Below, piece by piece: positions 58 through 4,707 of a stretch of DNA of 7,984 nucleotides. This DNA comes from a virus (taxonomy: Duplodnaviria; Heunggongvirae; Uroviricota; Caudoviricetes), in the IMG/VR virus record IMGVR_UViG_2850808358_000006, positions 1 through 7,984 of that record; one strand, written 5' to 3'. Below the pieces are notes generated by a model that was not told the origin of the DNA, did not search any database, and saw only the letters and a program-made list of their open reading frames with translations. Each line of letters opens with the position of its first letter. Position 1 is the first letter of the stretch. A program made the position numbers and the translations under genes.

Positions 58-363
58 CTATTCCTGCTCTTTGACCTTGCGTCGCTGGAGTTCTTCACGC
101 GCGACGGTGACGAGTTGCCCGATCTCCTCGGCGGCTTTGACTCCGATTTTTTCCACCTGCGCTAGGGCATCGAGCGAAGAAACCAGGAGGTTTTCTCCGC
201 TTCCTTCTGCCTGGCGGCGGGCGATTTCACCGCGCATGGCGGTTACTATGAATCCGGCGTTGCTTTCACCGTCCAGTTTTACGGATTCCATGCCTTCAAT
301 AACATCATGCGGGATCCGAGCTGTCAGTGATTGTGATTTTGCGTTTTTTGAACCTGTAGCCAT
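58..363 (-). CDS. ribbon-helix-helix (CopG/Arc-like) DNA-binding protein; candidate repressor divergent from the replication operon
   Basis: Minus-strand ORF (track 58..378, TTG start). I prefer the internal ATG at plus 363-361 because a GAGAGG Shine-Dalgarno lies 6-8 nt upstream (plus 369-377). The N-terminus SLTARIPHDVIEGMESVKLDGESNAGFIVTAMRGEIARR fits a beta-strand/helix/helix RHH pattern by eye. No database search run. Confidence 0.55.
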   Translation of the reverse strand: MATGSKNAKSQSLTARIPHDVIEGMESVKLDGESNAGFIVTAMRGEIARRQAEGSGENLLVSSLDALAQVEKIGVKAAEEIGQLVTVAREELQRRKVKEQE

Positions 364-379
364 CTGTAATCCTCTCAAT

Positions 380-465
380 GAAAGTGTAAGACAATATACA
401 CATAAAAAGTCTTACATAAAAGCATTGACATGTAAGCCACCTATAAATAAAGTTACTTACACCTT
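380..465. promoter_or_regulatory. divergent promoter/operator region: TTGACA (425-430), 17-bp spacer, TAAAGT (448-453), with two inverted-repeat operator candidates
   Basis: Inverted repeat 1: TGTAAGAC (385-392) and GTCTTACA (409-416), 16-bp spacer. Inverted repeat 2: TGTAAG (431-436) and CTTACA (456-461), bracketing the spacer and -10 of the rightward promoter. Lies between the divergent RHH gene and the plus-strand operon. Confidence 0.5.
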
Positions 466-559
466 GTTAATGCAAGGTGCAGAAACGACGAAACCCCGCA
501 CTGTAGGAGCAGTAACGGGGCTTCTAACCACCAACGATAGCAAGATTATCGAGGCAGCT

Positions 560-763
560 ATGAGAAATCATACCATACACCCGCAAGGGCGGGACTCGTA
601 CAACCTGAATAAATACATCTGGCGTTTTATCGCCCTGAGCACCGCACAACCGCGCGTGATTCACATCGTGGCCACCAGCGAACAGGAAGCACGCCAGCAA
701 TCCCCGGCTGGCTGCGTGATGGTATTCGCCGCCCGTATTCGTCAGGGGGTGTGCCATGCCTGA
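560..763 (+). CDS. hypothetical small protein (67 aa), first gene of the rightward operon
   Basis: ATG at 560 preceded by GAGG (551-554). Its stop TGA 761-763 overlaps the next start ATG 756 (ATGCCTGA), suggesting translational coupling. This is the C-terminal part of track ORF 2..763. No recognisable motif. Confidence 0.4.
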   Translation: MRNHTIHPQGRDSYNLNKYIWRFIALSTAQPRVIHIVATSEQEARQQSPAGCVMVFAARIRQGVCHA

Positions 764-2601: not shown

Positions 2602-3501
2602 GTGTCCACGTCAGCCTATACGTTGTTTAACGGTTCCGGGAAATTACAGGGGGCGAAGGACGGCGGCAACCGGGAGATAAAACACTGGCGCACGGTGGCA
2701 ATCAGCACCGGAGAAATGGACGTTGAGACATTCCTCAAAACGGAGGGGATAAAAGTCAAAGCGGGGCAGCTTGTCCGCCTGCTTAACGTTCCGATGGAAA
2801 AAGCCACGCACTTTCACGAATACAGCACCGGAAAGGCGCACGCAGACGCGTTAAAGGATGCCTGGACAGAAAATCACGGGGCAGCGGGTCGTGAGTGGGT
2901 TAAATGGCTGGCAGGCCACCAGCAGGAGGCAAAGGATACGGTAAGGGAATGCCGCGAACGGTGGCGCAACCTGATACCGGAGAGCTACGGCGAGCAGGTC
3001 CACCGCGTGGGTGAGCGTTTCGCCATACTGGAGGCCGCGCTTGTGCTTTCCTGTCATGTAACTGGCTGGGCCGCGCAGGAATGCCGGGACGCAATACAGC
3101 ATAACTTTAATGCCTGGGTGAAGGAGTTCGGCACGGGTAACAGGGAATTTAAACAGATGGTTGAACAGGCTGAGGCGTTTTTGTCGTCGTTCGGGTTCAG
3201 TCGATACCTTCCTTACCCAAACAGTGATGAACGTGATTTACCGATTAAAGACCTTGCCGGATACAGAAAGGGGAGTATCAGAAATGAAGATGATGAGTTC
3301 CGTTTTTACACGTTTCCTCATGTGTTTGAGGGGGAGATCGCACAGGGATTTAACCCGTCCCACTTTGCCCGCGCGTTGAGTGCTGCCGGAATGCTGGAAG
3401 CGGGTAACGATCGCCGTTACAAGAAAAAGGCTCTCGGCAAAATTGGGGGGAAGCAGCATGTTTTTTACGTGCTGATGTTCCAGCCTGAGGCAGAAGATTA
3501 A
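2602..3501 (+). CDS. primase-helicase, C-terminal fragment (SF3/D5-like or DUF927-like helicase); homology extends upstream to about 2413 in the same frame
   Basis: Track ORF 2602..3501 (GTG). My manual frame-1 translation from 2413 gives HLFEQSSAGKTTTQNIASSLWGEPDAQRLTWYGTALGIANEAEAHNDGLLPLDEIGQAGNAREV, with Walker A (GKTT) at 2437-2448 and a Walker B-like LLPLDE at 2557-2574, then running into the track ORF. This means the two fragments are one gene split by a frameshift. Confidence 0.6.
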   Translation: MSTSAYTLFNGSGKLQGAKDGGNREIKHWRTVAISTGEMDVETFLKTEGIKVKAGQLVRLLNVPMEKATHFHEYSTGKAHADALKDAWTENHGAAGREWVKWLAGHQQEAKDTVRECRERWRNLIPESYGEQVHRVGERFAILEAALVLSCHVTGWAAQECRDAIQHNFNAWVKEFGTGNREFKQMVEQAEAFLSSFGFSRYLPYPNSDERDLPIKDLAGYRKGSIRNEDDEFRFYTFPHVFEGEIAQGFNPSHFARALSAAGMLEAGNDRRYKKKALGKIGGKQHVFYVLMFQPEAED

Positions 3502-4541: not shown

Positions 4542-4556
4542 ACAACGAGTAACAGA

Positions 4557-4579
4557 AGCCGGAGAAGTCCGGCTTTTTT
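4557..4579 (+). terminator. rho-independent terminator after ssb
   Basis: Stem AGCCGGA (4557-4563) and TCCGGCT (4568-4574), loop GAAG, followed by a T-run through 4579. Confidence 0.75.
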
Positions 4580-4585
4580 ATGCCC

Positions 4586-4626
4586 AAAAAAAGCCCGATA
4601 AGGTCAGAGGGTCTTATCGGGCTTTT
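4586..4626. terminator. second hairpin, bidirectional-terminator-like (A-run, 11-bp stem, T-run)
   Basis: A7 (4586-4592); stem AGCCCGATAAG (4592-4602) and CTTATCGGGCT (4613-4623); 10-nt loop; TTTT (4623-4626). Confidence 0.55.
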
Positions 4627-4707
4627 GCATATGAGGCTTTTATCTAACAGTATGGTAACTACTGTTGTCGGAGATAATTTCATAATTTGCAACACAACTC
4701 AACATTA

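Follow-up and report, generated by a model that had tools for sequence, protein, structure and literature searches.

In the immI region of phage P22, the small ribbon-helix-helix repressors Mnt and Arc act at divergent, back-to-back promoters, with operators that are placed on the promoter elements. These P22 operators are single sites of 17–21 bp whose half-sites lie about one turn apart, and in Mnt an N-terminal ribbon-helix-helix domain is combined with a C-terminal coiled coil that joins two dimers. NikR, which carries a nickel-binding C-terminal domain and has one operator, recognizes GTATGA-N16-TCATAC over the promoter, the 6-bp half-sites being 22 bp apart (centre to centre) and each being occupied by one dimer of the tetramer. 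In omega (pSM19035) and the CopG/ParG-type repressors, it is the N-terminal strand that gives specificity. In the Gram-positive PICIs, whose master repressors are Stl/Rpr, the repression exerted by Stl is relieved by a helper protein.

For the Gram-negative islands, no regulator other than the activator AlpA is described, it has been called unclear whether a repressor exists, and the contrast with the Gram-positive islands has been called a mystery (PMC6092414). Reporter fusions of EcCICFT073, the prototype Gram-negative PICI (adjoining phoQ in strain CFT073), showed that downstream expression needed AlpA, which was also required for induction (PMC6092414). A ylcI/ynfO gene is merely listed in Enterobacter cf-PICIs by one survey (PMC13612085). 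In a literature search of incomplete coverage, we found neither YlcI/YnfO proteins as regulators of PICI satellites nor a paper discussing the module of regulator and Icd-like gene in EcCICFT073. Here we describe the regulatory region of such a module, the repeats that it contains and the way in which these repeats change together with the protein encoded next to them.

Genomic context of the window

The window (i.e., the whole stretch of 7,984 nucleotides that was analysed) carries on its plus strand, in this order, genes for an Icd-like protein, a hypothetical protein, a DUF4222 protein, a DUF927 primase, an SSB, a lambda-E-type capsid protein, a decoration protein and a TerS-like protein. 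The Icd-like gene (560..763, plus strand; NF033153, 71.2 bits versus a cut-off of 25) is the first of the rightward operon, and the regulator gene is divergent from it. The order int, alpA, (regulator), icd-like, DUF4222, primase, SSB, capsid E, decoration, TerS-like is found in two related loci (L001 and L094) as well as in EcCICFT073, and since the window has this gene order in common with L094 and EcCICFT073, it is part of an EcCICFT073-type satellite (Gram-negative PICI). Positions 1–1799 are identical to island DNA of E. coli Ecol_224, where they follow downstream of integrase and AlpA-type HTH genes; int and alpA lie to the left, outside the window, and alpA is convergent with the regulator gene. 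Related sequence is present in roughly 1600 E. coli genomes.

The corresponding module of EcCICFT073 (L108 6474–7053, equal to E. coli CFT073 NC_004431.1 1380473–1381052) encodes a 59-aa regulator of the short form described below, with the strand KSQALKARV, that is likewise divergent from an Icd-like gene. Both small genes bear late-added locus tags (C_RS30120 and C_RS30125).

The primase gene of the window is split into two ORFs (1364–2500 and 2602–3501), which match residues 1–371 and 412–710 of an intact 710-aa DUF927 protein in L094; a frameshift, a pseudogene or a sequencing error may be the cause. Directly after the SSB gene, at 4556–4649, A and T runs border a pair of G+C-rich hairpins, which probably form an intrinsic terminator that acts in both directions and separates the replication module from the capsid module; the Rfam matches at this place (ncr1175 and NsiR1) were weak and sub-threshold.

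Repeat array

Two pairs of TGTAAG-type repeats had been noted at 380–465, and both are there with the stated spacing: the first consists of TGTAAGAC (385–392), N16 and GTCTTACA (409–416), thus covering 385–416 overall, and the second of TGTAAG (431–436), N19 and CTTACA (456–461), covering 431–461. TGTAAG or CTTACA was counted six times on both strands of the 7984-base window, and four of the six copies fall within the 77 bp of 385–461. This clustering is far beyond chance: the number of TGTAAG copies per 80 nt never exceeded three across 2000 first-order Markov simulations of the window, and four copies were reached in none of 50,000 simulations with intergenic composition, the model for which was trained on sequence including the TGTAAG repeats themselves. 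When the pattern is extended to RTGTAAGN[CA], it has four occurrences in the window, all of which are sites of the array. An Rfam search of the window gave no match at the repeats.

The unit of the array is a site of about 9 bp with the consensus RTGTAAGNC, and four such sites occupy 384–462 (about 80 bp). Site 1 (384..392, plus strand, GTGTAAGAC) overlaps the predicted leftward start point at about 386, and site 2 (409..417, minus strand; bottom-strand sequence ATGTAAGAC) extends over the spacer and the weak −35 of the putative leftward promoter. Site 3 (430..438, plus strand, ATGTAAGCC) adjoins the −35 of the rightward promoter and takes in the first part of the spacer, and site 4 (454..462, minus strand; bottom-strand sequence GTGTAAGTA) adjoins the −10 of this promoter and takes in the predicted start at about 459–461. 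The unit centres, taken at the sixth base, are 23, 23, and 22 bp apart. The whole is mirror-symmetric about position 423 (midpoints at 423 for sites 1 and 4, at 423.5 for sites 2 and 3, and at 423 for the two −10 hexamers), which is why the repeat finder also reported the nested inverted repeats 381–390/456–465 and 411–417/430–436, an equally valid way of pairing these units. The same program reported an inverted repeat CACCTTG/CAAGGTG (460..479, plus strand) at the 5′ end of the rightward transcript; this repeat may form a hairpin in the 5′ RNA or be the remnant of a fifth site. A clear fifth site, about 112 nt from the regulator ATG, is present in other types (L041, L006, L038, L101).

Predicted promoters on both strands

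A rightward sigma-70 promoter (425..453, plus strand) is predicted from its match to the consensus and from its conserved position. It consists of TTGACA (425–430), a spacer of 17 nt and TAAAGT (448–453), with 10/12 matches in a sigma-70-like scan, and it is kept in nearly all of 24 representative loci, with TTGAC at the same offset and TAnnnT 16–18 nt further on. This promoter, which is overlapped by the cores, heads the icd-like, DUF4222, primase, and SSB genes. Both repeat pairs were originally thought to bracket it, and this holds for one of them: sites 3 and 4 flank the −10, site 3 beginning at the final base of the −35 and site 4 immediately past the −10, so that the second pair encloses the spacer and the −10, but sites 1 and 2 lie upstream of the −35.

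A putative leftward promoter of the regulator gene (393..420, minus strand) combines a −10 TATATT (398→393) with a weak, T-rich −35 TTTATG (420→415). It was not called by the promoter scan because of its poor −35. A TATAnT-like hexamer is nevertheless found on the bottom strand at a fixed offset in nearly all types (as TATACT, TATATT, TATAAT, TATAGT, or TATTGT), and we infer that TATATT at 398→393 is the −10 of the regulator's own promoter. The position of sites 1 and 2, which flank this conserved hexamer, suggests autoregulation.

The divergent regulator protein

The regulator gene (58..363, minus strand) encodes a 101-aa protein of the YlcI/YnfO family. The N-terminal domain model NF041551 (NCBIfam) matches residues 9–50 with 71.4 bits versus a cut-off of 30, and the identical gene in Ecol_224 carries the YlcI/YnfO annotation in RefSeq. 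Pfam scans gave no match for the protein of the window; 22 of 34 relatives had weak matches to PF07704 (best E 0.00098), and some sources label relatives as 'Arc-like' or 'CopG family'. The NikR-type C-terminal metal-binding domain was absent in the Pfam scans, which places the protein outside the NikR family.

The divergent protein had originally been taken for a ribbon-helix-helix protein, and this remains plausible, although it is weakly shown. In favour of it, the AF2 monomer (mean pLDDT 77.7) has helices at residues 19–28 and 35–52, the positions expected for a ribbon-helix-helix fold; against it, hhalign gave a probability of 4.5% for Arc (in a register that places R16-x-P18 on R13-x-P15 of Arc), and residues 8–16, the strand segment, were modelled as a low-confidence helix (pLDDT 50–64). 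We therefore speak of a presumed N-terminal ribbon-helix-helix domain, which in the domain layout is accompanied by a long C-terminal helix, modelled with confidence at residues 59–100. A Foldseek search with the AF2 model returned no match. In a PDB profile search, only a C-terminal helix-hairpin-helix-like stretch was hit, with a weak match to Hef; the helix-hairpin-helix reading (PF12826 E 0.09) was dropped, as the model shows one continuous helix at this place.

In the alignment of relatives, K9, S10, Q11, R16, and P18 are invariant or nearly so, and residues 12–15 (SLTA in the window) are hypervariable strand positions. Relatives come in two size forms, a long one (about 100 aa) with the confident C-terminal helix and a short one (59–61 aa; L008, L010–L012, and L108) with a basic tail at the end. 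Since short homologues without the C-terminal helix keep the same site spacing as the long form, the helix would not be essential for reading the array.

No match to the regulator protein was obtained by tblastn against 50,697 phage records, hence bona fide phages gave no context. YlcI of the E. coli K-12 prophage region DLP12 (L093 6252–6834) is divergent from nohD and lies beside cos; no comparable repeat array was seen upstream of it, and it thus gives no information on mechanism.

Strand residues and site cores across related loci

The regulatory region was compared across 105 loci with relatives of the regulator, made up of 11 loci from a one-genome-per-species set, 80 viral contigs, 10 loci from an exact-protein look-up, EcCICFT073, L001, L094, and the window. 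They originate from Escherichia, Enterobacter, Klebsiella, Yersinia, Photorhabdus, Xenorhabdus, Pantoea, and others. A common frame is kept in these loci, with units at about 21, 45, 66, and 90 nt from the regulator ATG (sometimes also at 112 nt), TTGAC at 61 nt and the bottom-strand TATAnT at 30–35 nt. An element (C)AGTATACAC, located between sites 1 and 2 at 30–38 nt from the ATG, is conserved in all types. The equivalent of site 1 (about 21 nt from the ATG) shows the type-specific core in nearly all related loci, and in some types (L010, L012, and EcCICFT073) degeneracy among the four positions is greatest at site 2. EcCICFT073 follows the same frame, with GGTGTGGCCCA units at positions 3 and 4.

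Within this frame, the core changes together at every unit of a locus and tracks regulator residues 12–15. The core TGTAAG goes with the strands SLTA, SLTV, SVTA, and SVTV, TGTGTTTC with LTTV and LFTV, TGTATNTC with MTT(I/L/V), TGTGATT (also given as TGTGATTC) with QISI, G(C/G)(G/T)ATTC with QLNA, TGTG(C/T)AT with IKNV and LKNI, TGTGTAC with MKNI, TGTAG(G/T)C with MIST, GTGT(T/A)NAC with ALAA, and TGTGGCC with the ALKA of EcCICFT073; TGT opens nearly every core. Each type's core is present two to four times in the region to which it belongs and is practically absent from the regions of other types (17 strand types, 105 loci); when the 17 types are tabulated against ten motifs, the table is nearly diagonal. 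The core of a strand type is kept in distant genera despite otherwise diverged intergenic DNA: TGTAAG is common to E. coli and Xenorhabdus, TGTGTTTC to E. coli and Photorhabdus, and TGTGATTC to E. coli and Yersinia.

The orientation of the units depends on the type (+ + − − in IKNV/LKNI, + − + + + in MTTI/MTTL), while their positions are fixed, and the phasing of 22–23 bp is also seen in the direct-repeat types and in those with a fifth unit. As orientation varies at fixed positions, each unit is more likely a self-contained site for one dimer. The original prediction, in which the repeats were half-sites of two operators, had therefore probably chosen the wrong unit.

Two natural recombinants bear on the pairing of strand and core. 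One locus (L064) matches the window with at least 99% identity from 521 rightwards and with about 85% over the C-terminal part of the regulator; the differing block (305–520) contains only regulator codons 1 to about 20 and non-coding DNA, and here the strand is LTTV and the sites are TGTGTTTC. In the second (P0014/L106), which is a chimera with an SLT strand on MKNI-family helices, the units are still TGTAAG. The strand codons are only 20–70 bp away from the sites, and one recombination tract may for this reason account for some of the association; that four to five separate sites change in concert within a conserved frame makes linkage alone less likely. Cores that follow the N-terminal strand over 105 loci and 17 strand types speak for the earlier proposal that the repeats are sites of the divergent protein, and this covariation supports, without proving, specific binding by the YlcI/YnfO protein. 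The repeats are very probably operator sites.

Leader and a possible antisense RNA

A conserved leader hairpin (490–524) folds far better on the bottom strand (RNAalifold −22.3 versus −10.2 kcal/mol), contains 63 G.U cells (A.C on the top strand) and has covarying pairs. On the bottom strand, related loci can be aligned collinearly with E. coli SymR, which is antisense over the symE start codon; their Rfam symR matches are sub-threshold (30–36 bits versus a gathering score of 61), and the window's own variant gave no symR match in Rfam. Candidate parts of an antisense RNA (575→480, minus strand) include TGGTATGAT (575→567) as an extended −10, followed by an anti-SD hairpin (551→535), the hairpin at 524→490 and a U-rich tail (493→480). 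It is possible, going by these elements, that the bottom strand of 480–575 encodes a cis-antisense RNA similar to SymR, which would be about 78 nt long (from about 560 to about 481) and would overlap both the ribosome-binding site and the start codon of the icd-like gene. The bottom-strand folding and the SymR alignment make such an RNA worth testing as a second, independent control layer. A leader hairpin covarying with the operator type was considered and rejected, the TGTAAG array being found with two hairpin variants (L024, L028, and L030). A LexA box at the conserved CAGTATACAC, considered by analogy with symE, was rejected as well because CTG-N10-CAG is absent.

In some loci that have the same promoter-operator module (L030 996–1194 and L037 195–393), the strand opposite the regulator gene carries a truncated icd-like gene followed by Rfam matches above threshold to isrK (66–80 bits) and C4 antisense RNA (76–78 bits). 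These matches can be read as a link between the promoter-operator module and the RNA immunity regions of the P1/P4 type.

Proposed mechanism and alternative explanations

We consider it probable, on the basis of the sequence comparisons, that 384–462 is a binding array for the divergent 101-aa protein, which would repress both back-to-back promoters of the PICI. The YlcI/YnfO protein would act as an Arc/Mnt-like ribbon-helix-helix dimer whose N-terminal strand (residues 9–17, with 12–15 variable) reads the core, with one dimer per unit, the dimers being aligned on roughly one face of the DNA at intervals of about two helical turns and, in the long form, possibly linked through the C-terminal helix. 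Since the units lie directly against the −35 and −10 hexamers and extend over both predicted starts, their occupancy should block RNA polymerase, excluding it from the rightward as well as from the leftward promoter. To the right, the icd-like/DUF4222/primase/SSB replication operon would be silenced, and to the left the repressor would limit its own synthesis (negative autoregulation). The protein would then behave as a homeostatic repressor and not as a bistable switch, and release would come from an outside input, for example AlpA or a helper phage. The need for AlpA in EcCICFT073 (PMC6092414) is compatible with a promoter that is repressed.

The protein could also bind these sites in a different role, either by activating one promoter and repressing the other or as an antitoxin-like autoregulator of a two-gene operon, which we regard as unlikely. 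Mnt activates one promoter and represses the other (Pmnt, Pant), and at the present locus sites 1 and 2 occupy the putative promoter of the regulator gene. Related loci have a gene of 48–67 aa for a small basic protein 3′ of the regulator on the same strand, and weak VapB-type matches were obtained among the relatives. This small downstream protein, however, has no family match, and sites 3 and 4, which directly adjoin the −35 and −10 of the rightward promoter and overlie its spacer and start, have a position that is repressor-like rather than activator-like.

Binding of the repeats by another factor, such as AlpA, the Icd-like protein, or a protein of the helper phage or the host, seems quite improbable to us. 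Among regulators of these islands, AlpA alone is known from experiment (PMC6092414), the Icd-like protein matches phrog_6196 and phrog_1743, both labelled 'transcriptional repressor', and the (C)AGTATACAC element that separates sites 1 and 2 is conserved in all types and could be recognized by a shared factor. Yet different cores are found with identical AlpA alleles (located by tblastn) and likewise with identical Icd-like alleles, and a host factor could not explain about ten mutually exclusive cores in one species. In addition, the N-terminus of the divergent protein is the only coding sequence in the co-varying block, and among the proteins of the element that could be tested in this way, only this N-terminus tracks the site cores.

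A third explanation, in which the phased repeats are replication-origin iterons for the primase or another initiator, is very improbable. The phasing of 22–23 bp resembles the spacing of plasmid iterons, and the array is located upstream of replication genes, but units of about 9 bp in mixed orientation are not of the iteron kind. The cores are also independent of the primase type: the TGTAAG array is paired with two different primase C-terminal regions, and primases that are 79–93% identical are paired with TGTATATC units. Published placements of the origin count against this explanation too, the origin of EcCICFT073 having been placed in the replication region cloned with rep (PMC6092414) and those of GN-PICIs, by a later paper, downstream of pri (PMC10111431). 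That the repeats are there by chance, or form RNA or DNA hairpins without any sequence-specific protein, is barely credible even in an A+T-rich region and with short inverted repeats being common in promoters, given the Markov simulations, the three of four units that lie upstream of the predicted rightward start, the direct units that some types have at the same positions and that are unable to form hairpins, and the cores that change in concert.

If the divergent protein is indeed a repressor acting through this array, it would provide a handle on the silent state of these satellites. The 200-bp block differences among near-identical islands would be explained as immunity or exclusion groups, and the natural strand/operator pairs would amount to a recognition table, usable as orthogonal repressor-operator pairs. 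A wider reading is put forward tentatively and strikes us as rather doubtful: the protein would be the missing master repressor of Gram-negative PICIs, the strand/array types would represent at least ten immunity groups among satellites that are otherwise nearly identical, and induction by AlpA or the helper phage would overcome the repression, e.g., by transcription from the convergent alpA gene that passes through the repressor gene in antisense and continues into the replication operon.

Comparison with known systems

In kind, the locus would correspond to the Arc/Mnt-type arrangement: divergent promoters, a small repressor encoded beside them and, within this repressor, a domain layout like that of Mnt. 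The likeness to Mnt would lie in the combination of an N-terminal domain with a C-terminal helix, as modelled for the protein of the window, and the likeness to Arc in the aligned register R-x-P-x-(D/E)-V, which is common to both proteins although there is no significant sequence relationship between them. Kinship in sequence with Arc/Mnt, NikR, or omega is not demonstrable. Compared with the single P22 operators, the array has four to five units, two turns apart, that extend for about 80–100 bp over both promoters. The N16 geometry of the first repeat pair is the same as in the NikR operator; unlike NikR, the protein has a single C-terminal helix or, in the short forms, none, and it faces an extended array. 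With the omega system, the array would share non-palindromic units that are direct or inverted, variable in number and presumably bound by one dimer each, whereas the omega heptads are contiguous (7-bp period) and the units described here are 22–23 bp apart.

Stl proteins are, to our knowledge, not ribbon-helix-helix proteins and are unrelated in sequence to the regulator described here. The arrangement is nevertheless similar to that of Stl/Rpr in Gram-positive PICIs (PMC6092414), in that the regulator is transcribed away from the replication operon, from divergent promoters and at the boundary between integrase and replication genes. Should the YlcI/YnfO protein indeed repress the replication operon, its function would correspond to that of Stl.
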